Shown here piece by piece: positions 7,631-23,213 of a DNA stretch of 24,000 nucleotides. Source of the stretch: Limimonas halophila (GTDB lineage: Bacteria > Pseudomonadota > Alphaproteobacteria > Kiloniellales > Rhodovibrionaceae); NCBI RefSeq assembly GCF_900100655.1, contig NZ_FNCE01000001.1, forward strand, positions 545,252-569,251, in the 5' to 3' direction. The notes under the pieces were generated by a model. That model made no database searches. It worked only from the letters and a program-made list of their open reading frames with translations, and was not told the origin of the DNA. A program made the translations under genes and the position numbers. Within the stretch, counting starts at the first letter, position 1, and the number at the start of each line of letters is the position of its first letter.

Positions 7631-8170
7631 ATGCGCGAGCCCGGGGGGCCGATGCCCGACGACACTTTCCGCTGGATGCTCACATGCGAGACGCCGCGCC
7701 TGCGCCGCTTCGCCACGGCGCTGACGGGTGACGCGGAGCGCGCGGACGATCTCGTGCAGGACACGCTGGAACGGGCGCTGCGCAAGCGCCGGCTGTGGGC
7801 CGGGACGGGCAGCATGCGGAGTTGGCTGTTCAAGCTGCTCTACCGCGTGCACCTCAACCAGCGGAGCCGCGCGCGCACCGAGGCATCGGCCCTCACGGCC
7901 GTGGAATACCGGGACACCGGCAGCATGCCGGCCAACCAGGACAGCCACGTCGAGGTGCTCAATGTCTCCGTGGCCCTGCGCGCGCTGCCGGCGGAGCAGC
8001 GCGACGCCGTTCTGCTGGTGGGCCTGGAGGGCATGGCCTACGACGAAGCCGCGGATGTGCTCGGCGTCCGCGTGGGAACCCTGAAGTCGCGCCTCTACAG
8101 GGGGCGCGAGGCCCTGTGGGCGATCCGCCGGGGCGACGTCGCGGCGACGCAGACGAAGGTGCGCTCATGA
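7631..8170 (+). CDS. ECF (group 4) sigma-70 family RNA polymerase sigma factor
   Basis: 179 aa. Region 2 reads ADDLVQDTLERAL...SWLFKLLYRVHLNQ. Region 4 reads LPAEQRDAVLLVGLEGMAYDEAADVLGVRVGTLKSRLYRGREAL. The start could also be the ATG at 7652. Confidence 0.85.
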   Translation: MREPGGPMPDDTFRWMLTCETPRLRRFATALTGDAERADDLVQDTLERALRKRRLWAGTGSMRSWLFKLLYRVHLNQRSRARTEASALTAVEYRDTGSMPANQDSHVEVLNVSVALRALPAEQRDAVLLVGLEGMAYDEAADVLGVRVGTLKSRLYRGREALWAIRRGDVAATQTKVRS

Positions 8171-9087
8171 CGACCGACGATTCGATCACCGATCTGGACC
8201 TGCTGGCCTACGCCGATGGCCGGTTGGACGCCGGACGCGCGGCGCGCGTCGAGGCCTACCTGGCCGAGCGGCCCGCGCTGCGCGACCAGATCGCCGATTT
8301 CGCCCGGCAGAACGCCGACCTGCACGCCTGCTTCGACCGCTACGCGGAAGCCGAGATTCCCGAGCGCATGCGGGCGGTGCTGAACGGTGCGCGCACGGAG
8401 CGTCCGCGCTGGCCGTCGGCGGCGATGCGCGCCGCGGCCGCGGTGGTTCTCATGCTCGCGGCCGGGGTGGGCGGCTGGTACGCGGGCGCCGGCGGCATGC
8501 TTCAGCCCGACGGGTCGCGCGATCTGGTCGCGCGCACCGCAAGCCTGCACGAGGGAGAGCCGGCGACCGAGCCGGTTTCGGCGGGCACGCCCGAAGGTAC
8601 GGCTGTGCTGGACTCGCTTCGCGAGCGTGCCGCGCTGCCGGCCCGGGCGCCGGAGTTGCGCCGGCACGGCTACCGCCTGATGAAGGTCGAGCGCGTCGAG
8701 ATGCAGGGCACGCGCGGCGTGGTGCTGCACTACGACGGTCGCGGGGAGCAGCGCGTGGACGTGGTGCTGCGCCCGCGCTGGGACGAAACGCCGGCGCGCG
8801 TGGAAACCACCACCCGCGGCGACGTGGGCCTCGCGCACTGGCGCGAGGGGCCGCTGGAGGTGGCGGTTGCCGGTCCCCGCGACGAGCGCGAGTTGCGCGA
8901 TCTGGCGCAAGCGCTGCGGCGATCCCTTCGCGCTTCGGGCAGTGGTGCGCCCTCGCAGCTGCGGCCGGACGAACCTTCACTGCAACGCAAACAGGAGGTT
9001 CAGGCCGCCAACGATCCGGACACCATGGTTCTTTCGCCCAGCCTGTCGCCGCAGCCGGCGGCGATCGGGGAAAATGTCCAACCGTGA
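8167..9087 (+). CDS. membrane-spanning anti-sigma factor (single TM, periplasmic C-terminal domain of unknown function)
   Basis: There is an ATGA overlap with the sigma gene stop at 8167-8170. The N-terminus LLAYADGRLDAGRAARVEAYLAERPALRDQIADFARQNADL is the typical anti-sigma domain helix pattern. One hydrophobic segment (AAAVVLMLAAGVGGWYAG) is present. The upstream 124 codons of the 430-aa ORF-track entry lie out of frame over the sigma gene and are ignored. Confidence 0.7.
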   Translation: MTTDDSITDLDLLAYADGRLDAGRAARVEAYLAERPALRDQIADFARQNADLHACFDRYAEAEIPERMRAVLNGARTERPRWPSAAMRAAAAVVLMLAAGVGGWYAGAGGMLQPDGSRDLVARTASLHEGEPATEPVSAGTPEGTAVLDSLRERAALPARAPELRRHGYRLMKVERVEMQGTRGVVLHYDGRGEQRVDVVLRPRWDETPARVETTTRGDVGLAHWREGPLEVAVAGPRDERELRDLAQALRRSLRASGSGAPSQLRPDEPSLQRKQEVQAANDPDTMVLSPSLSPQPAAIGENVQP

Positions 9088-9088
9088 T

Positions 9089-9113
9089 GGAACTTTCGCC
9101 GCGCCGGCCTGTC
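9089..9113 (+). promoter_or_regulatory. ECF-type promoter candidate P2 (GGAAC-N17-GTC) upstream of the DUF4168 gene
   Basis: The sequence is GGAACTTTCGCCGCGCCGGCCTGTC. It starts 2 nt after the anti-sigma stop and ends 81 nt before the ATG at 9195. It is 23/25 identical to P1. Confidence 0.5.
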
Positions 9114-9194
9114 CTCACGATGGATAGCACCCAACGGTGCAGGCCGCCGTCGGCCTGCGACGGTGGCCGATAACCACTGCAAAGGAGTTTCTGA

Positions 9195-9620
9195 ATGACC
9201 CGAGTTGCGACCCGTTCCCTGGCCGCCGCGCTCACGCTCGCCTTCGCTGCGGCCGCCGGTCAGCCGGCCCTGGCGCAGAGCGACAACAGCGGCAATTCCG
9301 GCGGACAGAGCAAGCAAGACGTCAAGACGGACTGGAGCGAGAAGAAGCTGGAGCAGTTCGCCACCGCCGCGACCGACGTGAAGGAGGTCTTCGAGGAGTA
9401 CCGCCCGAAGATCAAGAACGCCGAGAACGCCGATCAGGCGAACAAGATGCAGAAGCAGGCCAGCGACGATGCCGCCAAGGCGGTCAAGAGCTCCGGCCTG
9501 AGCGTTCAGGAATACAATCGCATCAATCAGGCGATCCAGGCGGACAAGGGCCTGCGCGACCGCGTGATGAAGATCATCCGCAAGCAGCAGGGCCAGGGTC
9601 AGGGCCAGGGCCAGCAGTAA
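9195..9620 (+). CDS. secreted DUF4168-like protein with C-terminal Gln-Gly repeat
   Basis: AAGGAG lies 7 nt upstream of the ATG. The signal peptide is MTRVATRSLAAALTLAFAAAAGQPALA/QS. The body is helical and Lys/Glu-rich, with the FxxAxxxV...Y pattern seen in DUF4168 proteins. The protein ends QQGQGQGQGQQ. Confidence 0.65.
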   Translation: MTRVATRSLAAALTLAFAAAAGQPALAQSDNSGNSGGQSKQDVKTDWSEKKLEQFATAATDVKEVFEEYRPKIKNAENADQANKMQKQASDDAAKAVKSSGLSVQEYNRINQAIQADKGLRDRVMKIIRKQQGQGQGQGQQ

Positions 9621-9884
9621 AGCGGCGGCGCTGACCGGGTCGCGGTGGCCGAAACCGCCGCCGCGCCCGCGTCCAACTGCCTCGTCCCCCGACCCCCGCC
9701 GCGGGCCGGCACGGTGCTGCCATGCCGGCCCGCGGTCTGTTGTGGCCTTGGCGCGCCCACCTCGGCATCCTGCCGGAACGGGCGCGGCCGCGGCCGGTTC
9801 CGCGATCGGCCGCCCCAGCCGCGGGGCGCCTGACGCCCCGCTCGCGCGGCGTTCGGATTGTCACAAGCGGCGAAGGAGATGCGC

Positions 9885-11039
9885 ATGGCCCCGCAGCGCG
9901 GAGGTGCAAGCCGCGATCCGGTCCGTCTGGCCATTATCGGCCTGGCGGCCCTGGTGGTGCTGATCCTGGTCATCGGGTTCGGGGTCGTGCGCGACGCCGG
10001 CTTCTTCGGCATGGCCGACCCGGTGCGATCGATCGTCTTCCCGGATCTGAAAGGCCAGCTGGAGCGCGTCGAGCGCGTGGAAGTCGCTGGCCCGAAAGGC
10101 GAGGTCACGCTGACTCGCGACGGGGATGGCTGGTCCGTCGTGCAGAAGAATGGCTACCCCGCGCAGGCCGAGCAGATCACCGCGATGCTGAACGCGATCA
10201 CCGGCATGCCGGCGCTGCAGCGGTTGGATACCGGGGAAGCGCAATTCGACGGCCTGGGCGTGGCCGCGGACAGCGAAGAGGGCACGCGCGTCACGCTGTC
10301 GACCGGCGAGGGCGAGCGTCTGCGCACCATCCTGATCGGCATGGAGAAGGCGGCGCCGGGCGCCGAGGACCTTGAGGCATATTACGTACGGGCGAGCGAC
10401 AGCCAGACGGTCTGGCTGGCGGACGCGGATTTGGCGTTCCCCGCCGATCCGATGGCCTGGCTCGATACCGAGGCCTTCGCCGTTCCCCGCGCGCGCATCC
10501 GTGCCGTCAAGACGGCGCCGGCCAGCGGCCAGCCCGTGCACATCCGCCGCGACGGGCCGGAAGACGCCACCTTCGCCGGGGTCGGCCTGCCGTCGGACAT
10601 CGAGTTGGAAGGTGACTGGGTGCTCGGCGAGCTTGTCGTGCCCTTCCAGTCCGTGCAGTTCTCGGACGTGCGGCGCGCTGACGAACCGCTCCAGCCCGGG
10701 GGTGACGAGCAGGGTTACGTTACCACCTTCGACGGCGTGAAGATCTGGTATACCCTCGAATCGCGCGACGGCGGGCAGTGGGCGCGCTTCGCCGTGGAAT
10801 CCGTCGCCAAGACCACCGCCGACGCCGAGCAGGGCGCGGCAGAAGACGGCGAAAACGGGCCGCCCGTCACGGCCGAAGACCTGAACACGCGCCTCAGCCG
10901 CTGGCAGTTCCGCCTGCCCGAGTTCCACGCCCAGCGCATGAGCCGGTCGATTGCCGACCTGCCGCGCAAGGGCGTGGGGGCGACCGAGGGCGCGACGACA
11001 GCGCCGGCGGACGCGGATGCCGAAGGCGGCGGCGACTGA
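9885..11039 (+). CDS. DUF4340-like membrane-anchored periplasmic protein
   Basis: It has an N-terminal anchor (LAIIGLAALVVLILVIGFGVV) and repeated beta-rich modules (VTLTRDGDGWSVVQKNGYPA, YYVRASDSQTVWL), as in DUF4340 proteins. The ORF track starts at TTG 9858. ATG 9885 has AAGGAG 6 nt upstream. Confidence 0.6.
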   Translation: MAPQRGGASRDPVRLAIIGLAALVVLILVIGFGVVRDAGFFGMADPVRSIVFPDLKGQLERVERVEVAGPKGEVTLTRDGDGWSVVQKNGYPAQAEQITAMLNAITGMPALQRLDTGEAQFDGLGVAADSEEGTRVTLSTGEGERLRTILIGMEKAAPGAEDLEAYYVRASDSQTVWLADADLAFPADPMAWLDTEAFAVPRARIRAVKTAPASGQPVHIRRDGPEDATFAGVGLPSDIELEGDWVLGELVVPFQSVQFSDVRRADEPLQPGGDEQGYVTTFDGVKIWYTLESRDGGQWARFAVESVAKTTADAEQGAAEDGENGPPVTAEDLNTRLSRWQFRLPEFHAQRMSRSIADLPRKGVGATEGATTAPADADAEGGGD

Positions 11040-11178: not shown

Positions 11179-11946
11179 TCACGATCGGCGCTTGCGCCGC
11201 GGTGCCCGGCCGCCCAGCCAGTTGGTCAGGCCGGTGATCGCCAGGGCCACCGCGGCCAGGCCGACGAGGTCCACGACGAGCACCCCGGCGGTGCCGAAGA
11301 GCCGGCCGCTGTGCAGGTCCAGCAGCAGGCGCGACCACGGAATGTGTGGGCGCCCCGCCAACTCAGCGAGGCGGGCGCGCACCTCGGCTGGCGGCTCGCC
11401 GGGCTGCGACCAGGTGTCGGGGCAGGACGTCTCGGACCAGGAGACGACGCCCGGCCCGGCGCGGTGGCAGCCGTTGGCGGTGCGCAGCACCACGCCGCCG
11501 TCCTTAGCCCGCGCCAGCGCCGTCGGTTCGCCGGGCAGCGCCGCCGCGCCCAGACTTTCCACCAGCCGGCCGTCCGGGGTCAGCAGCACCAGGGACGTCG
11601 AACCGGCGGCGACCAGCACGCGCGCGCTTGCCACCGCGCCGACGGGTGGCCCGGCGATGTCGGTCACGCGCTCGCCGTCCAGAACCAGCGTGCCGCCGGC
11701 CCAGCCGAGCCAGCGCCCGTCCACGCGGTAGGCGCGTGTCCGCGCCGCTGCGTCGTCGTGATACAGGCGCAGCAGCCAACCCCGGTGCAGCTCGGCGTCA
11801 TCCAGGCCCAGGGTTGGGCTGTGGTTGATCAAAACGCCCGTCACGGCCAGCAGCACCAGCACCGCGCCGGCCGCCAGCCCCACCCAGCGGTGCAGCTTCA
11901 GGTTCCAGGCGCGCAGGCGCTTGCGCCGCCGGTCAGCTCTCGCCAT
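11179..11946 (-). CDS. PepSY-associated transmembrane protein (PiuB/FoxB-like family)
   Basis: 255 aa. The N-terminus RKRLRAWNLKLHRWVGLAAGAVLVLLAVTGVLI is the PepSY_TM signature. A second TM segment lies at the C-terminus, after LLLDLHSGRLFG. The gene overlaps the upstream FMN-binding gene by 14 nt. Confidence 0.7.
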   Translation of the reverse strand: MARADRRRKRLRAWNLKLHRWVGLAAGAVLVLLAVTGVLINHSPTLGLDDAELHRGWLLRLYHDDAAARTRAYRVDGRWLGWAGGTLVLDGERVTDIAGPPVGAVASARVLVAAGSTSLVLLTPDGRLVESLGAAALPGEPTALARAKDGGVVLRTANGCHRAGPGVVSWSETSCPDTWSQPGEPPAEVRARLAELAGRPHIPWSRLLLDLHSGRLFGTAGVLVVDLVGLAAVALAITGLTNWLGGRAPRRKRRS

Positions 11947-12484
11947 CGCCGCCGTCCGCGCCGGTCACGGCGCCGTGTAGGACGAGCGCCATCTCGGCGA
12001 TGTTGGTGAGCGCGCGCACGCTCAGCGTGGCGCCGGAGATGCCGTCGATGTAGCGGTCCAGCCCGTCGCGCGCGGCGTTGAGCGTGGCGCCGTCGAACTG
12101 CTGGGTGAAGAAGTCCTCGCGCACCTCCCAGCCGCGGCTTTCCCGGTAAATCAGGACCTTGATGCGCTGCACCGCGCCGTCCTCGACGACGACGCCGGTG
12201 GTGATGGGTTCGTGCTTGCCGATGCGTTCGAGGATCCAGGCCGTGCGGTCGCCCCGCTGCCAGTAGCGCATGCGCAGGCTGTTGGGCTCGTCGCCCAGCA
12301 CGCGCTTGAGCCCGGCTTTCACCTCGCCGGTGATCCAGAGCACCTCGTCGCTCGGCGGCTCGCCGTCGAAGGCGCCGGCGATGAAGGCGTCCGGCTCCTG
12401 GTACACGTCCGCCGCCCACGCGGGCAGGGCGAGTGCGAGCAGCGCAAGCCCGATCAGAACCGGGCCGGTCGGGACGGAACGCAT
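11933..12484 (-). CDS. secreted FMN-binding domain protein (ApbE substrate-type)
   Basis: ATG 12482-12484 has GGAGG 6 nt upstream. The signal peptide is MRSVPTGPVLIGLALLALALPAWA/AD. The FMN_bind motif IDGISGATLSVRA contains the [ST]GA[TS] flavinylation threonine. Confidence 0.75.
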   Translation of the reverse strand: MRSVPTGPVLIGLALLALALPAWAADVYQEPDAFIAGAFDGEPPSDEVLWITGEVKAGLKRVLGDEPNSLRMRYWQRGDRTAWILERIGKHEPITTGVVVEDGAVQRIKVLIYRESRGWEVREDFFTQQFDGATLNAARDGLDRYIDGISGATLSVRALTNIAEMALVLHGAVTGADGGDGES

Positions 12485-12544
12485 GACGGCCCTCCTTCGG
12501 GGGTTCGGGGCCGGACGGCGCGGCCGCCCGGCCCGCATGCGTGG

Positions 12545-13885
12545 TCAGAACTGCAAGCCGAGGGCCAGGTTGAAGCTGCCCTCGTCGTCGCGGCTGTCTT
12601 CGTAGGTCTGGTGGGCGTAGTTGGCCTTCAGGACCATGTTGGGATCGAGCCAGTAGTTGGCGCCGACGTTGAACTCGGTGAAACGGCTGTCGATGGCGTC
12701 GCGGCCCGCCTGATCGTCGATCATGGAGACGCGGCCGAAGACGCCCAGCTCGCCGGGGCCGACGTTCTGGAAGGTGTAGCTGGGCTGCAGGTACCAGCCC
12801 CACTGCTCGTCGCGCCCGAAGCCTTCCAGCGACACCGTGGACGCCGTGCCGTCCTCGTCGAAGTCGATCTGCTGCTGCACGTCGTCGTGGAAGTCCCAGC
12901 GCGCGTACATGGCGCGGAAGCCCCACGGCCCGCGTTCGATGTCGGCGTGGGTCTCGAACAGCGTCGCCTCGACGTCCTCGCGGTCCTGGGTCACGTCCTC
13001 CTGGTACTGTCCGGTCGCGGACAGCGTCACGCCCGGCATCCCGGTCCACTGCAGGCGCAGCGTCCCGGCGCCGGATTCGGCCGTGGCGTTGGAAGCGGAC
13101 TGCGTGGACGCGGCGGCGTTGAAGGCGTTGCCGGCTTCGCCGCCCTCGGCGCCTTCCGCGCCGGTCAGCGAGGCGTCGAGCCCGGTGTGGATCATGGCGT
13201 CGTAGCTGAAGCCGCCGCCGAGCTGACCGCGCACGCTGGCCGAGGCCTCCCACCAGGTGGTGGGCAGGATGCGGCGCTCCACGATGGGCCGCTGCGTGCC
13301 GTAGAAGGTGTTGGGCTCGTGGGTTTCGTTGATAACGCCCACGGGGATCAGCTCGACACCGCCGCGCACCTCGTGGTTCTGGGCGATGTCGTAGGCGGCC
13401 CAGAGCTGCTCCAGCTCAACCTCGCCCTCGCTGTCCTCGCCGCCGAAGACGAGCGCGTTCTCCACTTCCAGTTCGGAGAAGAAGCGCAGGTCCTCGTTGA
13501 ACTGGTGGCCGACCTCGAGGACAAAGCGCTTGGCGGTGGCTTCGGCGTCGCCGTTGCCGACCTCGCCGCCTTCGCCGCCTTCCAGGGCGTTGTCCCCGAT
13601 GTAGTGGACCTCGCCGTAGCCGCCGATCTGGGTGTTCTCGAACCAGCCGGACGGCCCCTGGCGGGCCTCCTTGGCGACGTTCTGAACCATGTCGCCGGTG
13701 GCTTCGACCTTGGCCTCGGTCTCCTTCTGCTCGCCTTCCAGCTGGTCGATCCGCTCCTGCTGCTGCTGGATGATCTCCCACATCCGCTCGCGGGAGGGCA
13801 GGTCGTCGGTCTGCGCCCGGGCCTGGCCCGCCGTCATGGCGGCGGCGACCAGGGCCGAGGTCATCAGCAAGCTGCTGCGTCGCAT
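12545..13885 (-). CDS. outer-membrane beta-barrel porin with N-terminal coiled coil (OprO/P- or DcaP-like)
   Basis: These are the last 446 codons of the 830-aa ORF-track entry. The signal peptide is MRRSSLLMTSALVAAAMTAGQARA/QT. A coiled-coil stretch (IIQQQQERIDQLEGEQKETEAKVE) is followed by alternating beta-strand patterns. The protein has the OMP-type terminus LALGLQF. Confidence 0.75.
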   Translation of the reverse strand: MRRSSLLMTSALVAAAMTAGQARAQTDDLPSRERMWEIIQQQQERIDQLEGEQKETEAKVEATGDMVQNVAKEARQGPSGWFENTQIGGYGEVHYIGDNALEGGEGGEVGNGDAEATAKRFVLEVGHQFNEDLRFFSELEVENALVFGGEDSEGEVELEQLWAAYDIAQNHEVRGGVELIPVGVINETHEPNTFYGTQRPIVERRILPTTWWEASASVRGQLGGGFSYDAMIHTGLDASLTGAEGAEGGEAGNAFNAAASTQSASNATAESGAGTLRLQWTGMPGVTLSATGQYQEDVTQDREDVEATLFETHADIERGPWGFRAMYARWDFHDDVQQQIDFDEDGTASTVSLEGFGRDEQWGWYLQPSYTFQNVGPGELGVFGRVSMIDDQAGRDAIDSRFTEFNVGANYWLDPNMVLKANYAHQTYEDSRDDEGSFNLALGLQF

Positions 13886-13945
13886 GGGATACCCCCTTGG
13901 TTGTAGCGCCCGCCGACCGTGATGGCCGGCGCGCGCCTCCGTAAT

Positions 13946-13964
13946 GCGAATGCGACGCATTTGC
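13946..13964. promoter_or_regulatory. Fur-box-like palindrome 1, proximal to the porin operon
   Basis: The sequence is GCGAATGCGACGCATTTGC, with arms matching 8/9 around a central A. It matches the classical GATAATGATAATCATTATC consensus at 11/19 positions and is 16/19 identical to box 2. It lies 61 nt from the porin ATG. On the minus strand it fills the 17-nt spacer between TTGCAA and TACGGA. Confidence 0.4.
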
Positions 13965-14074
13965 AACACGCCTTCTGTCCGGTTACAACCCGGCTGTGGC
14001 TTGCGGCGGACGCGCCGCGCACCGGGGCATGTCCCGCTTTGACGCGGGGCGCCGGAGCGTGCCGCGACCATCTT

Positions 14075-14093
14075 GAGAATGCAAAGCATTTGC
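14075..14093. promoter_or_regulatory. Fur-box-like palindrome 2, proximal to pepM
   Basis: The sequence is GAGAATGCAAAGCATTTGC, with a core of TGCAAA-GCA-TTTGCA. It matches the classical Fur consensus at 13/19 positions. It lies 60 nt from the pepM ATG. It overlaps a possible TTGAGA-N17-TAGCGT promoter. Confidence 0.4.
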
Positions 14094-14152
14094 AATAGCG
14101 TCCCGAACGCCGGGTGGCCGGATGGCCGGCCGGCGCGGGGAAGGGGGAGCCC

Positions 14153-15097
14153 ATGACGCTGCACATCGACCAGGAAAGCGCGCCCGCGACGAGTCGCCTG
14201 CGCGCGTTGCTGCACGCCGGCGCGCCCATTCCGGTGATCGACGCCTACGACGCGCTCTCGGCGCGCATCGTCGAATCGGCGGGCTACCGGGCGATCTGGG
14301 CCTCGGGCCTGGGTATCTCGGCGTCCTTTGGGCTGCGCGACAACAACGAGGCGTCGTGGACGCAGATCCTCGACTCGCTGGAGCTGATGGCGGAGGCCAC
14401 GAGCGTTCCCATCCTGGTCGACGGCGACAGCGGCTTCGGCAACTTCAACAACGTCCGCCGCTTCGTGAAGAAGATCGGCCAGCGCGGCCTGGCGGGCGTG
14501 TGTATCGAGGACAAGGCTTTCCCGAAGGCCAACTCCTTCGCCGAGCGCACGCACGAGCTGTGCCCGGCTGGCGAGTTCTGCGGCAAGATCCGCGCGGCCA
14601 AGGACAGCCAGCCTGACGACGACTTCGTCGTGGTCGCGCGCACCGAGGCGCTGATCGCCGGGCACGGGCTGGACGCGGCGCTGGCACGGGCGGAGGCGTA
14701 CCGCCACGCCGGGGCGGACGCCATTCTCGTCCATTCCAAGGCCACGACCGCGGAGGAAGTGGCCGCCTTCGCCGCCCGCTGGGGCGGCCGCGCGCCGCTC
14801 GTCGTCGTGCCCACGACCTACGCGGATACGCCGGCTGACACCTTCCAGCGCATGGGCGTGTCGCTGGTCATCTGGGCCAACTTCACGCTGCGCGCAGCCA
14901 TCCAGGGGATCGAGAACGCCTGCGCCGCCCAGCAGGCGAACGGCGGCGCGCCCGAGCCCGGCGACGCGCGCTACGCGCCGCTGAAACGCGTCTTCGAGCT
15001 GACCGACGAGCAGGAGCTGCGCGCGGCCGAGCAGCACTACATGCCCGCCGCCGAGGACGGTCCAGCGCCCGCGCGCCTGCGTGCAGCCGGGTCCTGA
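14153..15097 (+). CDS. pepM: phosphoenolpyruvate mutase
   Basis: The protein has an isocitrate lyase/PEP mutase fold and carries the PepM-diagnostic EDK-x5-NS motif (IEDKAFPKANSF). ATG 14153 is preceded by AAGGGGGAG. The ORF track starts at GTG 14114. Confidence 0.88.
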   Translation: MTLHIDQESAPATSRLRALLHAGAPIPVIDAYDALSARIVESAGYRAIWASGLGISASFGLRDNNEASWTQILDSLELMAEATSVPILVDGDSGFGNFNNVRRFVKKIGQRGLAGVCIEDKAFPKANSFAERTHELCPAGEFCGKIRAAKDSQPDDDFVVVARTEALIAGHGLDAALARAEAYRHAGADAILVHSKATTAEEVAAFAARWGGRAPLVVVPTTYADTPADTFQRMGVSLVIWANFTLRAAIQGIENACAAQQANGGAPEPGDARYAPLKRVFELTDEQELRAAEQHYMPAAEDGPAPARLRAAGS

Positions 15098-15108
15098 GGG
15101 GGCAGGCG

Positions 15109-16290
15109 ATGCACGAACCCGGTGCGCTGCTCGACACGCTCGCCGCCCACGGCGTGGATTTCGCCGCCGGAGTGCCGTGCTCGCTCCAGGGCGGGGTGTT
15201 CGCCGCGCTGGAGCAGGGGCGCGCGGATATCCCCTATGTGGCTGCCAGCGGCGAAGGGGAGGCGGTCGGCATTGCCGCCGGCGCCTGGCTTGCCGGGCGG
15301 CGGCCGGCGGTGCTCCTGCAGAACTCGGGCCTGGGCAACACCGTGAACCCCCTGGCGGCGCTCACGCAGCCCTTCGGGATTCCAGTGCTGCTGTTGGTGT
15401 CCTGGCGCGGGCAGCCGGGCACGGGCGACGCGCCGCAGCACGCCGTCATGGGCGCGGCGACCCACGCGGTGCTGAGCGATCTGGGCATCGCGCACGAAGA
15501 GCTGGCGGAAACCCCGGACGGCGTGGCGGCGCAGCTCGCCCGCCTGACGGCGTGGATGGACACCGAACGGCGCAGCGCCGCCCTGATCGTGCCGCCCGGC
15601 CGGATCGCCGAGCACGACGCGGGCACGGCATCACGGGTGAGCGCGGTCGCGGACGCGGACCCCGCACGCCGGGAGCCGGCCCCGCACCGGGATTTTCGGG
15701 CCGGCGGAGCGCCGCCCGCTCGTGCCGAGACCCTCAGGGCCGTCGCCGAAACCTTGCCGCCGGAGGCCGCCGTCGTCGCCACCACGGGCAAGATCGCACG
15801 CGAATGCTACGCGCTCGCCGACCGGCCGCGGAATTTCTACGTCACCGGCGGCATGGGCAGCGCCGCCGCCATTGGGCTGGGCATCGCCCGCGCGCAGCCG
15901 GCGCGGCCGGTCGTGGTGCTGGACGGCGACGGCGCGGCGCTCATGCGCCTGGGAACACTGGCGACCGTGGGGGCACAGGCCCCGGCGCGGCTGACCCACG
16001 TGCTGCTGGACAACGGCGCGCACGATTCCACGGGCGGGCAGCGCACCGCCAACCCCGGCGTCGACTTCGCCGCCGTCGCGCGCGCCTGCGGCTACGCCGC
16101 CACGGCCGCCTGCGACACCCGCGACGGCCTTGCCGAGGCGCTGCGCGCACCGGACGGCCCGGCGCTGGTCCATGCGCACGTGGCAACCGGGGCGCTGCCG
16201 AAGCTGGGCCGCCCACAGGAAACGCTGCCGGAGCTGGCCGCGCGCATGCGCGCGCACCTGACCGCCACGGAGGACTCCCCCGATGCCTGA
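15109..16290 (+). CDS. ppd: phosphonopyruvate decarboxylase (ThDP-dependent)
   Basis: 393 aa. The N-terminal PYR domain reads GVDFAAGVPCSLQ...LQNSGLGN. The C-terminal PP domain has the GDGAALM...NGAHDSTGGQ ThDP motif. The gene lies 11 nt downstream of pepM. Confidence 0.88.
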   Translation: MHEPGALLDTLAAHGVDFAAGVPCSLQGGVFAALEQGRADIPYVAASGEGEAVGIAAGAWLAGRRPAVLLQNSGLGNTVNPLAALTQPFGIPVLLLVSWRGQPGTGDAPQHAVMGAATHAVLSDLGIAHEELAETPDGVAAQLARLTAWMDTERRSAALIVPPGRIAEHDAGTASRVSAVADADPARREPAPHRDFRAGGAPPARAETLRAVAETLPPEAAVVATTGKIARECYALADRPRNFYVTGGMGSAAAIGLGIARAQPARPVVVLDGDGAALMRLGTLATVGAQAPARLTHVLLDNGAHDSTGGQRTANPGVDFAAVARACGYAATAACDTRDGLAEALRAPDGPALVHAHVATGALPKLGRPQETLPELAARMRAHLTATEDSPDA

Positions 16291-17740
16291 CGCCGCATCC
16301 GCCCGCGAACCCGCGCCCGACGCCTCGGCCGCGGCCGAACCGGGCGGCTGGCCCGCCGTGAACGTGCCGCGCTCGCACGCGCCCGGCGTGGTCTGGCCGG
16401 CCGTGCCGGACTGGCGCCAGGCGGTGGTCCTGGGGCTGCTGCACCAGTTCAACCAGGCGCAGTGGTGGTCGCCGGACGACCTGTGGCACTGGCAGCGCGC
16501 CCAGGCCGCGCGGCTGATCCTGCACGCCCAGAAGCACGTGCCCTTCTACCGCAAGCGCCTGAAGCGGGTGCCCATCTTGCGCGACGGCACCGTGCCGGAA
16601 GGGGCGTGGCGCCGCATCCCGTGGCTGCGGCGCGAGGACATGCAGAATCAGTACGAGGCCCTGTGCAGCCAGGCGATCCCCGAAGGCCACGGGCGCGTGT
16701 CCGCCGTGCATTCCTCGGGCTCGACCGGCCGGCCCATCAAGGCGCTGCGCACGCAGCTCTCGGTGCTGTTCTGGGAAGCCTTCACGCACCGCGACCACGA
16801 CTGGCACGGCCGCGACCGCAACCAGACGGTCGCCGTTATGCGCCACGCGGGCGAGGGGGACGACCCCTATCCCGAGGGCACGCGCGCCCGCAACTGGGGC
16901 AAGGAGCCCACGGCCGTCTACGACACGGGGCCGTGCGTGGCGCTCAACCTCAACACGCCGTTGGATCAGCAGGTGGAGTGGCTGCAGCGCCAGCAGCCCG
17001 CCTATCTGCTCACCTTCCCCTCGAACGTCGAGCGCCTGGCCCGGCACTGCCTGGAGACCGGCGCGCGCATCCCGACGCTGCGGCAGGTGCAGCTCATCGC
17101 CGAGGTGGTGCGCCCCGAGCTGCGCGAGCTGGTGCGGGCGGCCTGGGGCGCCGAGGTGGTGGACACCTACAGCTCGCGCGAGGCCGGGTATCTGGCGCTC
17201 CAGTGCCCCGAGCACGAGCACCTGCACGTGCAGAGCGAGGGCGTCATCGTCGAGGTGCTGAAGGACGACGGCACGCCCTGCACCCCCGGCGAGATCGGGC
17301 GCGTCGTGGTGACGCCGCTGCACAACTACGCCATGCCGCTGATCCGCTACGACATCGGCGACTACGCGGAAGTGGGCGAGCAATGCCCGTGCGGCCGGGG
17401 GCTCCCGGTGCTGCGGCGCGTTCTCGGGCGCGCGCAGACCACCTTCGTGCTGCCCGACGGCAGCCGGCGGTGGACGCTGCTGTCCAGCGGCGAGATCCGC
17501 GAGCTGCTGGCGATCGGCCCCATCCGGGGCTATCAGTTCGTGCAGACAACCACGGACCATGTCGAGGCGCGGCTGGTCGCCGACCGCGCGCTCACGACCG
17601 ACGAGGAAGAGCAGGTGCGCGGCTGGCTGCGCCACAAGCTGCAGCATCCCTTCGCCGTCACCATCGCCTATCGCGACGAGCTGCCGCTGACGGCCGGCGG
17701 CAAGTTCTTCGACTTCATCTCGGAGGTTGCCGCGCCATGA
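16283..17740 (+). CDS. PaaK / coenzyme-F390-synthetase / CapK-like adenylate-forming ligase (ANL superfamily)
   Basis: 485 aa. It carries the AMP-binding motif SSGSTGRPIK, the YSSREAG and PLIRYDIGD regions, and a C-terminal GGKF. GGAGGA lies 8 nt upstream of the ATG. The gene overlaps the ppd stop by 8 nt. Confidence 0.75.
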   Translation: MPDAASAREPAPDASAAAEPGGWPAVNVPRSHAPGVVWPAVPDWRQAVVLGLLHQFNQAQWWSPDDLWHWQRAQAARLILHAQKHVPFYRKRLKRVPILRDGTVPEGAWRRIPWLRREDMQNQYEALCSQAIPEGHGRVSAVHSSGSTGRPIKALRTQLSVLFWEAFTHRDHDWHGRDRNQTVAVMRHAGEGDDPYPEGTRARNWGKEPTAVYDTGPCVALNLNTPLDQQVEWLQRQQPAYLLTFPSNVERLARHCLETGARIPTLRQVQLIAEVVRPELRELVRAAWGAEVVDTYSSREAGYLALQCPEHEHLHVQSEGVIVEVLKDDGTPCTPGEIGRVVVTPLHNYAMPLIRYDIGDYAEVGEQCPCGRGLPVLRRVLGRAQTTFVLPDGSRRWTLLSSGEIRELLAIGPIRGYQFVQTTTDHVEARLVADRALTTDEEEQVRGWLRHKLQHPFAVTIAYRDELPLTAGGKFFDFISEVAAP

Positions 17741-18729
17741 CCACACGGCGGACGCTTCTCGGCACGCTCGGCGGCCTCGCCGGCGCGGCCGTGTTGCCCT
17801 GGCCGCTGGCGGCGGGTGAGCGCGCACGCCGCGAACCGCTGACGTTCATGGGGGTGTCGGGCCGCGTGACCCTGGCGGACCCCGGTGACGGCCGCGTCGA
17901 GGCCGCGCTGGCGCAGGTGCGCCGCGAGCTGCGGCGCCTGGAAGCGGCCGTGAGCCTCTACGATCCAAACAGCGAACTCTCGCGCCTCAACCGCGACGGC
18001 CGGCTGGCCGGGGCCTCGCCGGCGCTGCGCGCGGTGCTGGACCGGGCGTTGGCGGTCGCGCGGGCCACGGACGGCGCCTTCGATCCCACGGTGCAGCCGC
18101 TGTGGGAACTGCACGCGCGTTTCTTCCGCGATGCGAACGCCCCCGCGCCCCCGCCGCAGCTGCTGCGCGAGCGCGCGGCCGGGCTGGTCGATCATCGGCG
18201 CGTGCGCGTGGACAGCGATGGCGTGGCGTTCGACCGGCCCGGCATGGCGGTGACGCTCAACGGCCTGGCGCAGGGCCGCGCCACGGACCTCGTCACCGAA
18301 ACGCTGCGCCGTCATGGCCTGCACCGGCACCTTGTGGATCTGGGCGAATTCAGCGCCCGCGCCGGAAACGACGGCGAGCCGTGGCGTGTGGGCGTGGCCG
18401 CGCCGGCGGGCGGGCGGCTGACGCTGGTGCGCACTGTCCCGCTGACGTCGGGTGCGCTCGCCACCTCGGCAGGCTACGGCACACCCTTCGACGCCGAAGG
18501 CCGGCACCACCACCTCTTCGATCCCGCGACCGGCGGCAGCACCACGCGCCACGCCAGCGTCAGCGTCACCGCGCCCGACGCTGCCACCGCGGACGCGCTG
18601 TCGACCGCCTTTTCGGCCATGCCCACGGGCCGCATCGCCGCCGTGGTCGCGGACCGGCCGGGGCTGGGCGCGCTCGTCGTGGATCACGCCGGGGCGGTAG
18701 AAACCTTCGGCCGCTTTGCGGCGGCGTGA
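17737..18729 (+). CDS. apbE: FAD:protein FMN transferase (ApbE family), Tat-exported
   Basis: There is an ATGA overlap with the ligase stop. The twin-arginine signal is MTTRRTLLGTLGGLAGAAV. ApbE motifs are FDPTVQPLWELH, LNGLAQGRATD and TSAGYGTPFDAEGRHHHLFDPATG. The first 425 codons of the 755-aa ORF-track entry lie out of frame over the ligase gene and are ignored. Confidence 0.85.
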   Translation: MTTRRTLLGTLGGLAGAAVLPWPLAAGERARREPLTFMGVSGRVTLADPGDGRVEAALAQVRRELRRLEAAVSLYDPNSELSRLNRDGRLAGASPALRAVLDRALAVARATDGAFDPTVQPLWELHARFFRDANAPAPPPQLLRERAAGLVDHRRVRVDSDGVAFDRPGMAVTLNGLAQGRATDLVTETLRRHGLHRHLVDLGEFSARAGNDGEPWRVGVAAPAGGRLTLVRTVPLTSGALATSAGYGTPFDAEGRHHHLFDPATGGSTTRHASVSVTAPDAATADALSTAFSAMPTGRIAAVVADRPGLGALVVDHAGAVETFGRFAAA

Positions 18730-18739
18730 CGGGCTCAGC

Positions 18740-19840
18740 ATGGCCGACGACGACGCGCCCATTCTGCTGACGCCGGGGCCGCTTACGACCTCCGCCGGCG
18801 TCAAGGCGGCGATGGACCGCGACCACGGCTCGCGCGATCCGGGATTCCTGGCGCTGACGCAGCGCGTGCGCGAACGCCTGCTGCGTGTCGTCGGCGGCGA
18901 TCCGGCAACGCACGCAGCCGTGCCGCTCGCGGGCAGCGGCACCACGGCCGTGGAGGCCATGGTGCTATCCCTCGTGCCGCCCGACGGGCGGCTGCTGATG
19001 CTGGTCAACGGCGCCTACGGCGAGCGCATGGCGCAGATCGCCCGCGCGGCCGGTCGCGACGTGACGACGCTGACCTGGCCGGAAGACAGCCCGGTCGATC
19101 CCGGGGCGGTGGACGCGGCGCTGGCCGCCGATCCGGCCATCGGGCACGTGGCCGTGGTCCACGTCGAAACCACCACGGGGCTGGAAAACCCCCTGCATGC
19201 GATCGCGCGCACGGTCCAGGCGCGGGGGCGGGCGCTGCTCGTGGATGCGGTCGCGAGCGTCGCGGCCACACCGTTGGATTTGCAGGAAACGCCCGTCCAC
19301 GCCCTGGCGGGCACGGCGAACAAGGGGCTGCAGGGCGTGCCGGGGCTGGCCTTCTGTGTCGCCCGGCGCGATGCGCTGGACGCGGCGGACGGTCGCGCGC
19401 CCAGCCTCACGCTCGATCTGGCCGCGCAGTGGCGGCGGTTCCAGCGCGATGGGCAATGGCGCTTCACGCCGCCGACGCACGCGGTCGCGGCCCTGGATCG
19501 CGCCCTGGACGAGCTGGACGGCGAGGGCGGCGTGCCGGCCCGCATCGCCCGCTACCGCGACAATTGCGCCACGCTGCGCGCCGGCCTGCGCGCGCGCGGG
19601 TTCGTGCCGCTGCTGCCCGACGCGCACCAGGCGCCCACGATCGTTACGGTGCACCGGCCGCCCGAGCTGGCGTTCGATGCGCTCTACGACGGTCTCGCCG
19701 CGCGCGGATTCCTCATCTATCCGCGCAAGCTGACCGCGGCCGAAACTTTCCGCGTCGGCTGCATCGGCGCCATCGGCCGCCGCGAGATCGAGGGATTCCT
19801 CATTGCGCTCGACGACGTGACGGCGAGCCTGCGCCCATAG
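18740..19840 (+). CDS. phnW: 2-aminoethylphosphonate:pyruvate aminotransferase (class V)
   Basis: 366 aa counted from ATG 18740. The N-terminus is ILLTPGPLTTS, and TANKGLQGVPGLAF contains the PLP lysine. Its position directly after pepM and ppd argues for a biosynthetic role. Confidence 0.85.
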   Translation: MADDDAPILLTPGPLTTSAGVKAAMDRDHGSRDPGFLALTQRVRERLLRVVGGDPATHAAVPLAGSGTTAVEAMVLSLVPPDGRLLMLVNGAYGERMAQIARAAGRDVTTLTWPEDSPVDPGAVDAALAADPAIGHVAVVHVETTTGLENPLHAIARTVQARGRALLVDAVASVAATPLDLQETPVHALAGTANKGLQGVPGLAFCVARRDALDAADGRAPSLTLDLAAQWRRFQRDGQWRFTPPTHAVAALDRALDELDGEGGVPARIARYRDNCATLRAGLRARGFVPLLPDAHQAPTIVTVHRPPELAFDALYDGLAARGFLIYPRKLTAAETFRVGCIGAIGRREIEGFLIALDDVTASLRP

Positions 19841-20186
19841 CTTGCAGTTGGACGCCGCCGCGACCCCATGCACTCGGATGGGCGAGCCGCGCACACCGCT
19901 CGGATCGACGTACCTGATCGGGATTACAAGTTGACGAATGCCGCGCCGACAACCGCGCTGGCATCACTGACGCAGGCCATAAAAATGGCTGGGGGACCAG
20001 GAAGCGCTCCCTCCACCGATAAATTCTTTGTTTTTCAATTTCTTAGCGAGTTGGTCCATCCTTGTGTGGACAAGCGCTGTGGACTCCCGCTGTGTCATTG
20101 CCACGTCCCCTCACTGGGTGGCTTATTCGTGATGCGAAGCCCATGGCTAGGACTACCCAGAGTACACGGTAATTGATGGCGCAAAG

Positions 20187-20704
20187 TTAGAATAGCTCGT
20201 TCGGGGTCTCGATAACGTTGCGGGCGACGTGCGGGGTGACGCCCTGTTCGCGCAGCTCCGCCACAAAGTCCTTGGTGTCGTAGCCTTTGTCGGCGCCGAG
20301 CGTTCGCCTTGCGTGTCGGGCATGTGCAGCGCGGCCATTCTCTTCGTAGGCGGGGTGCGCACGTCCACGACGCGACCGTGCCTGTTCTTGGTGAACACAC
20401 GATCCATGTAAGCGAGTCCCGATGTTTGGCCCGCGGCTTTGTGGAACAGATGTAAACCCGGATCGGCGCTCGAGCGGCTGGTGGCGTTAGAACGGCGTTC
20501 GCCGCGGAAAAACTCCGCCCATGTTGCACGGGTCGGTCGCCCCGCAATCCCAGGTCCGTAACCGCAGTTGTCGTTCCCACTCTCACGATCGACTGGATAG
20601 AAGTTCCCAACCAACACCTAAGCTTGGATCAGCGCGCCGCCGACCGAGCGATGGTCCAAACTCAACAGCGCCTTCGCGCGCTCATTCTCCAGTACCACCG
20701 TAAG
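20187..20704 (-). pseudogene. decayed internal fragment of an IS5/IS1182-family DDE transposase
   Basis: The minus-strand translation reads TVVLENERAKALLSLDHRSVGGALIQA*VLVG...FFRGERRSNATSRSSADPGLHLFHKAAGQTSGLAYMDRVFTKNRHGRVVDV. After a frameshift it continues TLGADKGYDTKDFVAELREQGVTPHVARN and ends abruptly. There is an in-frame TAG where Trp is expected. The N-terminal part and the C-terminal roughly third of the protein are missing. Confidence 0.7.
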
Positions 20705-20734
20705 AAGTTATTCGTTATTTTGACTCAGAATAAG

Positions 20735-21185
20735 TCACATATCGCGGCTGGGGATGTTGTGCTCCTGGGCGCCCTCGGCACCCACGGCGTCCGCGTAGAT
20801 GGCCGTGGTGCTGAGCTGCGCGTGGCCGAGCCACTTCTGCACCATGTTGAGCGGAATACCGGCCTGCATCGCCGCCACGCCGAAGCCGTGGCGCAGGCCC
20901 TTGGGCGTGGCCTGCGGGCCGTCCAGGCGGGCCTCGTGCATGACGGCCGCGACGTGCCGCCAAGCGGTCGGCCGGCTCCACGACCATAAGCACACGCCGC
21001 GCGCGACTGCGCCGCTGCAGTTGGCGGACGTCGTGCACCAACTCCAGCGCGTCGAGCACACTGGTTGGCACGGGCACGGCCCGATACACGGCAGACCGGC
21101 GCTCTTCAGCCGTTAGGTGCTTTCGCGGGCCTTGGGCGTCGTAGAGTTCCAGGTGGGCGGGCGCGTGGTCGGTGCGCGCGGTCAT
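20735..21185 (-). pseudogene. short tyrosine recombinase/integrase, frameshifted and probably internally deleted
   Basis: The C-terminal catalytic region reads PKGLRHGFGVAAMQAGIPLNMVQKWLGHAQLSTTAIYADAVG (the R-H...H...Y box). The N-terminal frame starts at ATG 21183-21185, with GGAG upstream, and reads MTARTDHAPAHLELYDAQGPRKHLTAEERR. The two parts are in different frames, since the 451-nt span is not a multiple of 3. The region carrying the first catalytic Arg appears to be absent. Confidence 0.6.
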
Positions 21186-22361
21186 GTGATCTCCGTGTAC
21201 GCATGCCGCGCCTTTACGGCCGCCGCATGCTGCAGTGCGCGCAAGGCCGCCTCCGGGTTGTGGGTCGGCATTGAGGGAGGGTGCCGATTGGCCCCGTAAG
21301 TTAGTGATGCACATGACTTTCCAGGGGTTAGACGCTGACGCCGATCGACACGCAGGCGCTTCTTTGTGCTTCACGCGGAGGCTCTCGCGGTTACATACGA
21401 CAACAAGGCGCCCGGCAATTCCGCCCGGCGGAATATTGGCCGATACCCAGCACACACCTCCCCCGCGTTTTTTCTTCCGCAGCGCAAACGGGCGGCAGGC
21501 ATCTGCGCGGTCGGCAGCAGGCACAGCAAGCATCAGCAGAGCGCGAACAGCAACTGCGAACGAGCGCCAGGGCGGGGGAGGACCCTTCGCTAGACCCGGC
21601 CCATGTGATCCTGTTCGCGAGGTGGTGGCGAGCGCCGGGCACTGCTTGCTCTCGGCACGTTCAGGCTGTCGGCCGCGGCTCGCCGGCGGGCATGGTGCGC
21701 GTTGCTTTCAGGTGGCTCGCTGCAGCGCTGTCACCGGCACCGGTGGAAAACGCGGCTGGCAAGGCCAGCGTGGTCGTGGCGGAGCCGATGCTCGCCAAGG
21801 TGTAAGCGCGATCGACCCAGTCCGGCCGCGCCGCGCGGGTGTCAGCTGACCGCACTGCGCCGTCCTGCGGCGCGTCCAAGATCGCGGGCAGCGGGGCGGC
21901 TTTTGTATTCGGGGACAGCAAGGTGCGCCTGTCGCGCAGCTTCGAGAAAGTGGGGAAGGGCAACAAGGAGAACGGGGTTGGCGATCCGTGTCGCCCCCTT
22001 CGCCACCACGATGAAGAACCTTTGTGCACGCGCATTTTCCTATGCGCTTCCCACCGCTGGGAGATGAAAGTGTATTCGCTTCACTCACCGGCCAAGGGCT
22101 TGTGCCAGAACGTTCCTGGCGTTTCGCTATGACATCTTGGGGAGCTCCCTTCGGAGACGCTCGTGGGACACGTAGGGCTTTGAGAGGGTGGGTATGCAGA
22201 GTTCGAACGGTGTTCATCAGGCTGCATGGGGTTTTCCAGATGCAGTGTGACGACGTGACCCAAGATCATGGCTATGTTTCTGCTTTCCCTGAATAATTCG
22301 ACTTTTTGCTTGATGAATGAATCAACGCGTGTGGTGATTCAGCGGCTCTCGTGGATTAGGG

Positions 22362-22389
22362 TTGACGGAAATTGAAAACATAATATAGA
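22362..22389 (+). promoter_or_regulatory. near-consensus sigma70-like promoter candidate in an AT-rich island
   Basis: The element is TTGACG (22362-22367), a 16-nt spacer, then TATAGA (22384-22389). No annotated gene lies downstream, only a 32-codon ORF without an RBS. Confidence 0.3.
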
Positions 22390-22760
22390 TCAATTATTTA
22401 TGAGCTATGATTTTGATAGGCTGCATTTTGCAGATTCATCAACGAATCGAGCGACCTCTTTATTAATTCAGGTAGACGCGTTGTTTCTGCATCACTGATG
22501 CACTGTGTTGACAAGATAAAGCTGCGCTCGAAGCCGTCTGAGCCGCCTAGCGAACGAGGCGATCAGGGCCGGGTCTAGCGCGTGCCTGCCACCATCCAAT
22601 CGCTGCATCTCGCGCTGATGCGAAACAGCCACGTAAGCGCTTACTGGGGCGCCTCTGGCTTTCAGGGGCGGGCCCCACGTAGCCCCCAACCCCCAAAGGC
22701 CCCTCAGCGGCGAAAAAATCGGCCCTGGCGGGCATCTCTGCGCGCGATCAAACCCCGGCT

Positions 22761-23213
22761 CTAGTAGCCGACGCAGCGAACGCTGCCATAGCCGGTCGGG
22801 AAGCACTCGATGTCGACGGTCGGCGTGGGCGGCGTCTTCCGGGGCCGGGCCGGCGTCATCTCCGGCACCTCGGCCTGATGAATGCCGTCCCTGGCCGAGA
22901 CCTCCAGGTAGAGCGATCCGTTCCGGCCGAAGCTGTAGCTGACGCTCGTATTGCTGCTCGGCGCGTCCCAGATCCCCTGACAGCCGGCGTACGAGCCGTC
23001 CATGCTCTCGAACCGGAGCCGGCACAGGGAATCGTCGACCCAGGGCCTAGCCGCGAAGGTCTCCGCCAGGGCCGGGTGCGAGAACGCCGGGTCGGTCTTC
23101 GACGTCTCCGGCCAGGGCGTGTCGGCGAGGGCCGGGCCGAAGGGCAGGGTGAAGGCCAAGCCGAGGGCGAGGGCATGCCGAGAGCGTGATCGGTGCCGGG
23201 GTAAGCTGTCCAT
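22761..23213 (-). CDS. hypothetical secreted protein (150 aa, 4 Cys)
   Basis: AGGAGA lies 7 nt upstream of the ATG. The signal-peptide-like N-terminus is RHALALGLAFTLPFGPALA/DT. Third-position GC is high within an otherwise lower-GC island. I recognise no family. Confidence 0.4.
   Translation of the reverse strand: MDSLPRHRSRSRHALALGLAFTLPFGPALADTPWPETSKTDPAFSHPALAETFAARPWVDDSLCRLRFESMDGSYAGCQGIWDAPSSNTSVSYSFGRNGSLYLEVSARDGIHQAEVPEMTPARPRKTPPTPTVDIECFPTGYGSVRCVGY

Follow-up and report, generated by a model that had tools for sequence, protein, structure and literature searches.

Introduction

PepSY-like flavinylation-associated gene clusters have been defined computationally and proposed to encode assimilatory iron reductases, and Fur represses those members of the group that occur in Shewanella and Caulobacter (Meheust et al., eLife 2021, PMC8238504). 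Here we describe a locus of Limimonas halophila, lying on a 24,000-nt stretch of DNA (contig NZ_FNCE01000001.1, positions 545,252 to 569,251; hereafter the window), in which the genes for a porin, a secreted FMN_bind protein and a PepSY_TM protein (the triad) diverge from an operon that interleaves the synthesis of 2-aminoethylphosphonate (AEP) with a CapK/PaaK-type adenylate-forming ligase and the FAD:protein FMN transferase ApbE. The best explanation of the whole, to which we assign a probability of roughly 50%, is a Fur-controlled divergon composed of a reductase core and an AEP/ligase addition that makes an Fe(III) ligand. Taken separately, an extracytoplasmic reductase core under iron regulation is probable, and the ligand role of the added AEP/ligase product is put forward as a tentative proposal. 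The reductase core belongs to a kind already described computationally; what is new is the addition of AEP and ligase genes under apparent iron regulation.

In common with the systems of Meheust et al., a PepSY_TM protein, ApbE and a secreted protein bearing an ApbE target motif are encoded here within 8.7 kb, the combination by which those systems are operationally defined. The differences lie in the predicted flavinylated partner, which is an FMN_bind protein at this locus (the usual DUF2271 and DUF4198 proteins were not found there), in the porin as first gene, in a PepSY protein with two transmembrane (TM) helices, and in apbE, which lies apart from the triad in the operon that holds the ligase and AEP genes. 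Neither porins nor phosphonates are mentioned in the defining paper (PMC8238504). With FoxB, PiuB and VciB the PepSY protein shares its PepSY_TM Pfam family, conserved His residues in or near the membrane helices and a predicted iron-regulated context, but its partner is a porin instead of a TonB-dependent receptor.

Known phosphonates serve as antibiotics, as herbicides or to decorate the cell surface, and a part in iron acquisition, if true, would be a new biological role for them. Most bacterial AEP is destined for cell-surface decoration (PMC6697681, PMC8942020), and an inventory of pepM neighbourhoods mentions no link to ApbE, porins or siderophores (PMC8942020). Our literature searches brought up no account of phosphonate biosynthesis under iron regulation, none of a phosphonate that acts as metal ligand or metallophore, and no open-access paper that combines PepSY, FMN-binding, porin and iron. 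The locus resembles canonical AEP clusters in that PepM, Ppd and an AEP transaminase are all present with equivalog or near-equivalog scores. Unlike those clusters, it holds no lipid or glycan tailoring genes and no PntC-type nucleotidyltransferase (family scans revealed none of the latter fused to or adjoining the PepM of the window, and no glycosyltransferase, phosphatidyltransferase or flippase in the operon), and its AEP genes are interleaved with the CapK/PaaK-type ligase and apbE behind a Fur-type operator.

Results

Two divergent operons share one control region

Limimonas halophila is an extreme halophile of the Rhodovibrionaceae. Because the window has a G+C content of 72%, reading frames were set by third-position GC and then by the translations of open reading frames, and protein families were assigned with Pfam and NCBIfam. 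Eight genes in two divergent operons emerged: leftward from the control region lie the porin, FMN_bind and PepSY_TM genes, rightward pepM, ppd, the ligase gene, apbE and phnW (Table 1). Frames, translations and family matches thus bear out the initial annotation, which had described these eight genes around a divergent control region of 267 bp. Neighbouring genes overlap at their stop and start codons by 8 nt (ppd/ligase), 4 nt (ligase/apbE) and 14 nt (FMN_bind/PepSY), which supports the two operons. The same eight-gene layout recurs in related genomes (L171 and L172, and also L086 and L091 as far as their contigs extend; L numbers are our own handles for comparison loci), and the arrangement is therefore no chance juxtaposition.

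PepM has TIGR02320 as its best match at 312.6 bits, 7 below the cut-off of 319.55, compared to 207.7 bits for phosphonopyruvate hydrolase, and its translation carries the sequence IEDKAFPKANS, in which the signature motif of PEP mutases, EDKxxxxxNS, is found. Ppd and PhnW both exceed their equivalog cut-offs (TIGR03297, 377.5 versus 312.5; NF010006, 422.7 versus 296; TIGR03301, 418.2 versus 360.8). The FMN_bind, PepSY_TM and Porin_4 matches also lie above the Pfam cut-offs, and the AMP-binding match of the ligase does so barely (30.0 versus 29.9 bits). ApbE starts with a twin-arginine (Tat-type) signal (MTTRRTLLG...) and is periplasmic. The claim that the flavin transferase sits inside the phosphonate operon and so interlocks the two halves of the locus stands as well: the FMN_bind protein of the leftward operon contains the ApbE target motif DGISGAT, and the Tat-signal-bearing apbE is translationally coupled to the ligase gene.

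Fur-type operators at both promoters

We aligned the intergenic DNA of the window with that of the relatives L171, L086 and L091 to obtain a four-way phylogenetic footprint. Against the diverged flanks, the ribosome-binding sites (among them a conserved Shine-Dalgarno sequence of pepM, GGGGGAG) and two near-invariant islands stand out, and a third island is partly conserved. The two near-invariant islands are Fur-type operators, and they are the only strongly conserved intergenic islands among the four relatives. In Magnetospirillum gryphiswaldense, the DNase-footprinted Fur operator reads TTAATCGCAACTCATTCGCAATTGC, and the symmetrised operator crystallised with Fur of that species is TTAATTGCAAATCATTTGCAATTGC (PMC4506495). 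Operator 1 is identical in the window, L171 and L091 and differs by a single substitution (C68A) in L086, and its core matches the symmetrised Magnetospirillum operator (feoAB1) at 13 of 17 positions. Operator 2 is closer still, with 15 of 17 core matches and two mismatches to TTGCAAATCATTTGCAA, a level that was reached in none of 100 shuffles of the window. Both promoters thus carry palindromes closely matching the Magnetospirillum operator, which makes them candidate Fur sites and, at the level of sequence, the best stand-in that computation offers for a measured response to iron limitation.

By manual reading, operator 2 would exactly fill the 17-nt spacer of the pepM promoter, the classical geometry of repression. 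A scan with the consensus sigma-70 promoter returned no match in the control region, and a terminator scan of the control region and the operon ends yielded one weak terminator-like site (20104-20120) and no other. The partly conserved island GTTACAACCCGGCTGTGGC could be an element of the leftward promoter or the site of a second regulator. No convincing Pho box was seen by eye in the intergenic sequence, for which no scan was run, and Rfam detected no RNA element or riboswitch in the window.

Table 1. Features of the divergent locus, with positions in the window.
Feature	Position	Strand	Remarks
PepSY_TM-family 2-TM membrane protein	11179-11946	-	255 aa; Pfam PF03929 45.8 bits, PF16357 33 bits
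FMN_bind secreted protein	11933-12538	-	Pfam FMN_bind 35.6 bits; probable start 12484
Porin	12545-13885	-	first gene of leftward operon; Pfam Porin_4 29.7 bits
Divergent intergenic control region	13886-14152		exactly 267 bp
Fur-type operator 1 (island 1)	13942-13966	.	TAATGCGAATGCGACGCATTTGCAA; 57-81 bp upstream of porin start codon
Partly conserved island	13982-14000	.	GTTACAACCCGGCTGTGGC; between the two Fur-type operators; phylogenetic footprint of four relatives
Fur-type operator 2 (island 3)	14073-14098	+	TTGAGAATGCAAAGCATTTGCAATAG; near-invariant in four loci, three variable positions
Rightward (pepM) promoter, as read	14073-14101	+	TTGAGA (-35-like), 17-nt spacer/operator ATGCAAAGCATTTGCAA, TAGCGT (-10-like)
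Phosphoenolpyruvate mutase PepM	14153-15097	+	Pfam PEP_mutase E 7e-63
Phosphonopyruvate decarboxylase Ppd	15109-16290	+	TIGR03297 377.5 bits
CapK/PaaK-type adenylate-forming ligase	16283-17740	+	485 aa; AMP-binding PF00501 30.0 bits
FAD:protein FMN transferase ApbE	17737-18729	+	Pfam ApbE E 5.5e-58, 197 bits
2-aminoethylphosphonate:pyruvate aminotransferase PhnW/AepZ	18740-19840	+	NF010006 422.7 bits; alternative TTG start 18716

The porin, FMN_bind and PepSY proteins

The FMN_bind protein has a signal-like sequence at its N-terminus, and a start at 12484 gives a Sec signal ending in AWA. Since the ApbE target motif, in the form D[GAS]x[ST]GA[ST], occurs in 67 of 68 orthologues, the protein is a predicted substrate for covalent flavinylation. 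The PepSY protein is 100% identical to a protein recorded at NCBI for Limimonas halophila. Its model, at a pLDDT of 89, shows two long TM helices, formed by residues 3-41 and 204-246, together with a periplasmic domain rich in beta structure, and three His residues (H19, H42 and H212) are invariant in 25 homologues. FoxB (PDB 7ABW) holds two haem sites, each with two conserved His residues (PMC11334425). The likeness to FoxB put forward in the initial annotation does not extend to the architecture, as the Limimonas protein differs from FoxB in its two TM helices, its three invariant His residues and its beta-rich periplasmic domain, and a Foldseek search of the model against the PDB gave no match at E <=0.001, FoxB included (the top hits were beta-propeller fragments at TMq <=0.35). 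We propose that the PepSY protein is a transmembrane electron carrier, and a dimer could rebuild a four-helix core.

The porin was modelled with modest confidence (pLDDT 67.6) as a 16-stranded barrel with an N-terminal coiled coil, for which the family conserves the motif LPSxEEMWxIIQxQQKQIE. In Foldseek the model matches general porins as well as OprO and OprP, the best TMq being 0.55 to OprO (4rjw) and OprP (2o4v), with general porins scoring similarly. The 16-strand barrel is shared with OprO/OprP. At the sequence level the window porin matches Porin_4 only, while many homologues carry PF07396 and are annotated as Porin_O_P or OprO/OprP-family, and no solved porin, OprP and OprO included, was matched in the PDB either with the single sequence or with a family profile. 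The invariant charged residues of the porin family are mainly acidic or His (E92, H94, H127, E138, E140, E142, E157, E159, H189, E190, E203 and H313), with five basic residues also invariant in the alignment. Alternating residues E138/E140/E142 and E157/E159 fall on adjacent strands, and residues 186-191 form an NETHEP loop. From strand periodicity, on which alone the orientation of these side chains is based, the lumen would be acidic and metal-friendly and would lack an OprP-like arginine ladder. This suggests a metal-cation-selective pore despite the OprO/OprP-family annotation of the homologues.

The triad is a widespread module

A metagenome scan anchored on the PepSY protein returned 402 relatives, mostly from marine sediments, of which 84 loci (L087-L170) were fetched and examined. 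Wherever the contig flank allows, the order is porin, then FMN_bind, with PepSY immediately behind FMN_bind, and all three genes are present in 54 of the 84 loci (for example L087:8156-11751 and L106:4373-6965). Nine of the 84 loci carry apbE on the stretch that was fetched, and five of these nine belong to the 16 loci that span 10 kb or more; in L087/L088 and L089 apbE comes fourth in the operon of the triad, after PepSY. The ligase and AEP genes were found in a single PepSY-anchored locus (L091), and the phosphonate is therefore not part of the general working of the module. Conservation of the eight-gene arrangement, the first check proposed with the initial annotation, holds within a narrow clade of Limimonas-like Rhodovibrionaceae (the window, L171/L172, L086, L091 and L001), and the triad is autonomous elsewhere.

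Fur-box-like sites extend beyond this clade. In 33 distant loci, a site with at most five mismatches to GATAATGATAATCATTATC occurs upstream of the porin in 30% of cases, versus 3.6% of shuffled controls, and at a limit of six mismatches the figures are 61% versus 14%; the sites mostly lie within ~100 bp of the estimated start of the porin. An operon for FTR1 and a cupredoxin alongside the triad in L087 is preceded by the same kind of Fur-type box, and in L089 a sequence closely resembling operator 2 of the window, AGAATGCGAATTGTTCGCAATA, precedes an operon (3605-10334) that encodes a porin, an imelysin (Peptidase_M75), a di-haem oxidoreductase (DHOR), an FMN_bind-like protein, PepSY and ApbE. 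FTR1 and imelysin belong to iron-uptake families, and their presence next to the triad favours iron. Because the triad is widespread with Fur-like boxes, we take the ancestral unit to be porin, FMN_bind and PepSY, with or without apbE, under Fur-type control. By gene neighbourhood, the ligase and AEP genes were added in one clade only to this ancestral triad, which appears uncharacterised as a unit.

In one sediment clade (10-13 loci), CusCBA/CusF-type efflux genes adjoin the triad. A copper/silver-type efflux neighbourhood follows the triad in L103, L106, L108, L119, L125, L140, L151, L155, L158, L160 and L161, and the genes after the triad in the same clade encode a small secreted protein rich in His, Cys and Asp, an efflux protein of the outer membrane, a CusB-like adaptor with CusF and HMBD domains and a pump of the RND type.

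The ligase gene is linked to the triad in one clade

Ligases of at least 65% identity are always encoded divergently from the porin/FMN_bind/PepSY operon, and this holds for all eight ligase-linked loci: the window, L171 and L172 (which are nearly identical), L086, L091, L001, L002 and L003. The AEP genes are embedded in six of the eight, either in the layout of the window (pepM-ppd-ligase-apbE-phnW) or in that of L001 (phnW-pepM-ppd-ligase-apbE). A neighbour-joining tree groups the module-linked ligases in a single clade, which has AEP-embedded layouts on either side of its basal split. As judged from these loci, the ligase, and not the set of AEP genes, is the tight, invariant and clade-specific partner of the triad.

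The wider family is large, with more than 4000 homologues of the ligase at 50-60% identity across phyla, often as several paralogues per genome, and the homologues carry CapK_C (PF27533). The nearest solved relatives are AjiA1 (PDB 6wuq) and a PaaK-like ligase (PDB 6siw) at E ~1e-21, and PaaK-like structures as a group are matched at 1e-21 to 5e-16. With these natural-product ligases, including the BagE/FevW family, the window protein shares the adenylate-forming fold family and an invariant C-terminal Gly-Lys (the catalytic G473 and K474, unchanged in 20 sequences), and they are its best relatives in the PDB and NCBIfam. AjiA1 and the deposited PaaK-like ligase form ester or amide bonds without CoA. 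The similarity is nevertheless at family level only and far below equivalog cut-offs, and the window protein belongs to a separate, highly conserved family of more than 4000 members that is marked by an invariant cluster of Cys residues (C333, C368 and C370, the latter two in a CPCGRG motif), which suggest a metal site. Nor is it a phenylacetate-CoA ligase equivalog (TIGR02155, 44.3 bits versus a cut-off of 646.3).

Gene neighbourhoods of this wider family were of little help. Across 82 loci no neighbour family occurs in more than 12, and they therefore give no functional hint. Among 80 ligase-anchored genome loci, only the closest (L004, on the same contig as L001) has any of the seven partner genes, and the nearest outgroup ligases (P0015 and P0008) lie in unrelated gene contexts. 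Two apparent cases of phosphonate genes next to a ligase were rejected, namely phnW in Bradyrhizobium (L026), a spurious 35-residue match, and ppd in L022, a partial TPP enzyme, so that no independent link between the ligase family and phosphonates remains. A role of the ligase in flavin or haem maturation, considered on account of the conserved ligase-apbE coupling, was dropped as nothing supporting it was found.

Two further observations concern these genomes. An 829-residue fusion protein with a ligase domain is encoded at L085:915-3404 among methyltransferases, an acetyltransferase, two more CapK_C paralogues and a Lant_dehydr_N/AMP-binding protein, in what looks like a natural-product gene cluster. 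A gene for an Nfu_N/NifU iron-sulfur scaffold lies one to two genes from the PepSY end of the module in L001 (2298-3209), L086 (1163-2068) and L171 (13999-14919), and is not there in the window.

Discussion

The gene identities, the operon structure, its conservation, the flavinylation motif and the Fur-like operators are established features of the locus, and the scheme that we build on them adds inferences on the substrate (iron), on the way in which electrons flow, on the chemistry of the ligase and on the part of its product as a ligand. A dedicated outer-membrane porin would admit a metal species, most likely Fe(III), to the periplasm. The two-TM PepSY-family protein would carry electrons across the inner membrane, and the soluble periplasmic FMN_bind protein, its FMN covalently attached by ApbE, would hand them to the substrate, after which a general transporter, whose gene lies elsewhere, would import the reduced metal. 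In the Limimonas clade, apbE would have moved into the divergent operon behind the ligase gene, with pepM, ppd and phnW built into the same operon. Because the AEP genes and the ligase gene share a proposed Fur-controlled divergon with the reductase, iron starvation is predicted to induce AEP synthesis, ligase and reductase together. By the simplest chemistry, the ligase would then activate a carboxylic acid for attack by the amine of AEP, and making the resulting small AEP amide is the likeliest task of the added genes. In its simplest role, this amide might bind or solubilise Fe(III), as a ligand of low molecular weight, for reduction by the pathway. In its fullest form the proposal amounts to the first phosphonate-containing metallophore, a Fur-controlled AEP amide made by a CapK/PaaK-type ligase, whose ferric complex enters through the porin and is reduced in the periplasm independently of TonB; we consider this version rather unlikely.

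Several observations weigh against the scheme. Apart from the scarcity of ligase and AEP genes next to the triad in the metagenomes, L002 has the ligase alone, with no AEP genes within 10 kb, and L003 has the ligase and, on the far side of the module, a separate PepM-nucleotidyltransferase cluster of the PntC type, the type used for surface decoration, with a PhnX-like hydrolase. Genes for an exporter, a TonB-dependent receptor, a periplasmic binding protein and an ABC or other inner-membrane importer are all missing from the locus, none of its genes supplies an acid substrate for the ligase, and neither the eight genes nor those around them in the window include a siderophore synthetase family of the NRPS, NIS or opine type. 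The invariant Glu and His residues of the porin would favour free cations over anionic phosphonate complexes, and the PepSY protein, as modelled, lacks the four-helix architecture of FoxB. Boxes of the Fur family cannot by themselves separate Fur from Mur or Zur, and Fur control of the rightward operon is explainable by apbE alone, since that gene lies there. Finally, the CusCBA/CusF-type efflux genes beside the triad in one sediment clade mean that the metal could be copper rather than iron.

Of the competing explanations, the one that survives best, although we hold it to be unlikely, is that the ligase and AEP genes are genomic hitch-hikers: the reductase and apbE would be iron-related, and the ligase and AEP genes, joined to them by a lineage-specific rearrangement, would serve an unrelated end such as a phosphonate secondary metabolite or a store of phosphorus or nitrogen. 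The 83 of 84 PepSY-anchored loci that lack ligase and AEP genes, the restriction of the linkage to one narrow clade and the lack of recurrent neighbours in the wider ligase family are in keeping with this, as is Fur control of the rightward operon, which apbE would call for in any case. On the other hand, the ligase gene stays divergent from the porin gene through at least four architectures and in eight of eight ligase-linked loci, and AEP-embedded layouts are found on both sides of the basal split in the ligase clade. The translational coupling of ppd, ligase and apbE and the conserved operator placed exactly in the presumed promoter spacer before pepM are likewise not what hitch-hiking would lead one to expect.

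Somewhat less probable again is a phosphonate that stays bound to the cell. At low iron, the ligase would join AEP to the envelope, for example as an N-acyl-AEP lipid or by amidation of uronic acids in a glycan, and thereby alter the surface charge near the porin. Surface decoration is the main fate of bacterial AEP (PMC6697681, PMC8942020), the ligase belongs to a family named after CapK, the locus has no gene for an exporter, and the PntC-type cluster adjoins the module in L003. Against such an end product, the operon lacks a nucleotidyltransferase, which in its PntC-type form is usually required to decorate surfaces with AEP, and likewise has no gene for a glycosyltransferase, a phosphatidyltransferase or a flippase. 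The predicted location of the ligase is the cytoplasm, and the linkage to the reductase module would be left without an obvious logic. The remaining possibility, that the system handles another metal or nutrient, by reduction of Cu(II) to Cu(I) or by reductive release of phosphate from ferric minerals through an OprO/OprP-like porin with the phosphonate genes serving phosphorus economy, is the most improbable. The Cus-type efflux genes of the 10-13 sediment loci, the cupredoxin gene of L087, the Porin_O_P or OprO/OprP-family annotation of porin homologues and the best TM-scores of the porin model (OprO and OprP) are set against Fur-type operators with no Pho box seen by eye (no scan was run), a porin with Glu/His invariants in place of an arginine ladder and with no PDB sequence match to OprP/OprO, a Cus neighbourhood confined to a single lineage, and FTR1 and imelysin neighbours from iron-uptake families.

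If the product of the AEP genes and the ligase does act in iron acquisition, one branch of an uncharacterised ligase family with more than 4000 members would gain a function. Independently of this, the widespread triad may represent a reductive path, not dependent on TonB, by which iron commonly crosses the envelope of Gram-negative bacteria. The predictions are directly testable in a named species, Limimonas halophila, if it can be grown under a controlled iron supply.

Other genes of the window

No tRNA genes were found in the window. On the far side of the triad, positions 7631-11039 hold an ECF sigma factor with a PhyR_sigma2-type region (7631-8170), a 306-residue protein without a family match that is probably an anti-sigma factor, a secreted DUF4168 protein and a DUF4340 protein, whose gene is convergent with PepSY in the window and likewise in L171 and L086. 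A complete biotin operon (bioB, bioF, a bioH-like esterase, bioC, bioD and bioA) occupies 1628-7440 on the minus strand, with most of its members at or near NCBIfam equivalog scores, and the genes downstream of this operon encode an ELM1-like protein (378-1604) and part of a sulfotransferase (1-417). At the other end, the stretch from 19900 to 24000 has a G+C content of 57-67% compared to 72% elsewhere, broken reading frames and a fragment of an IS5-type transposase (DUF772, 23458-23895), and is a probable insertion specific to this strain; downstream of phnW, the close relative L171 has Inositol_P, DUF6134 and NUDIX genes in its place.

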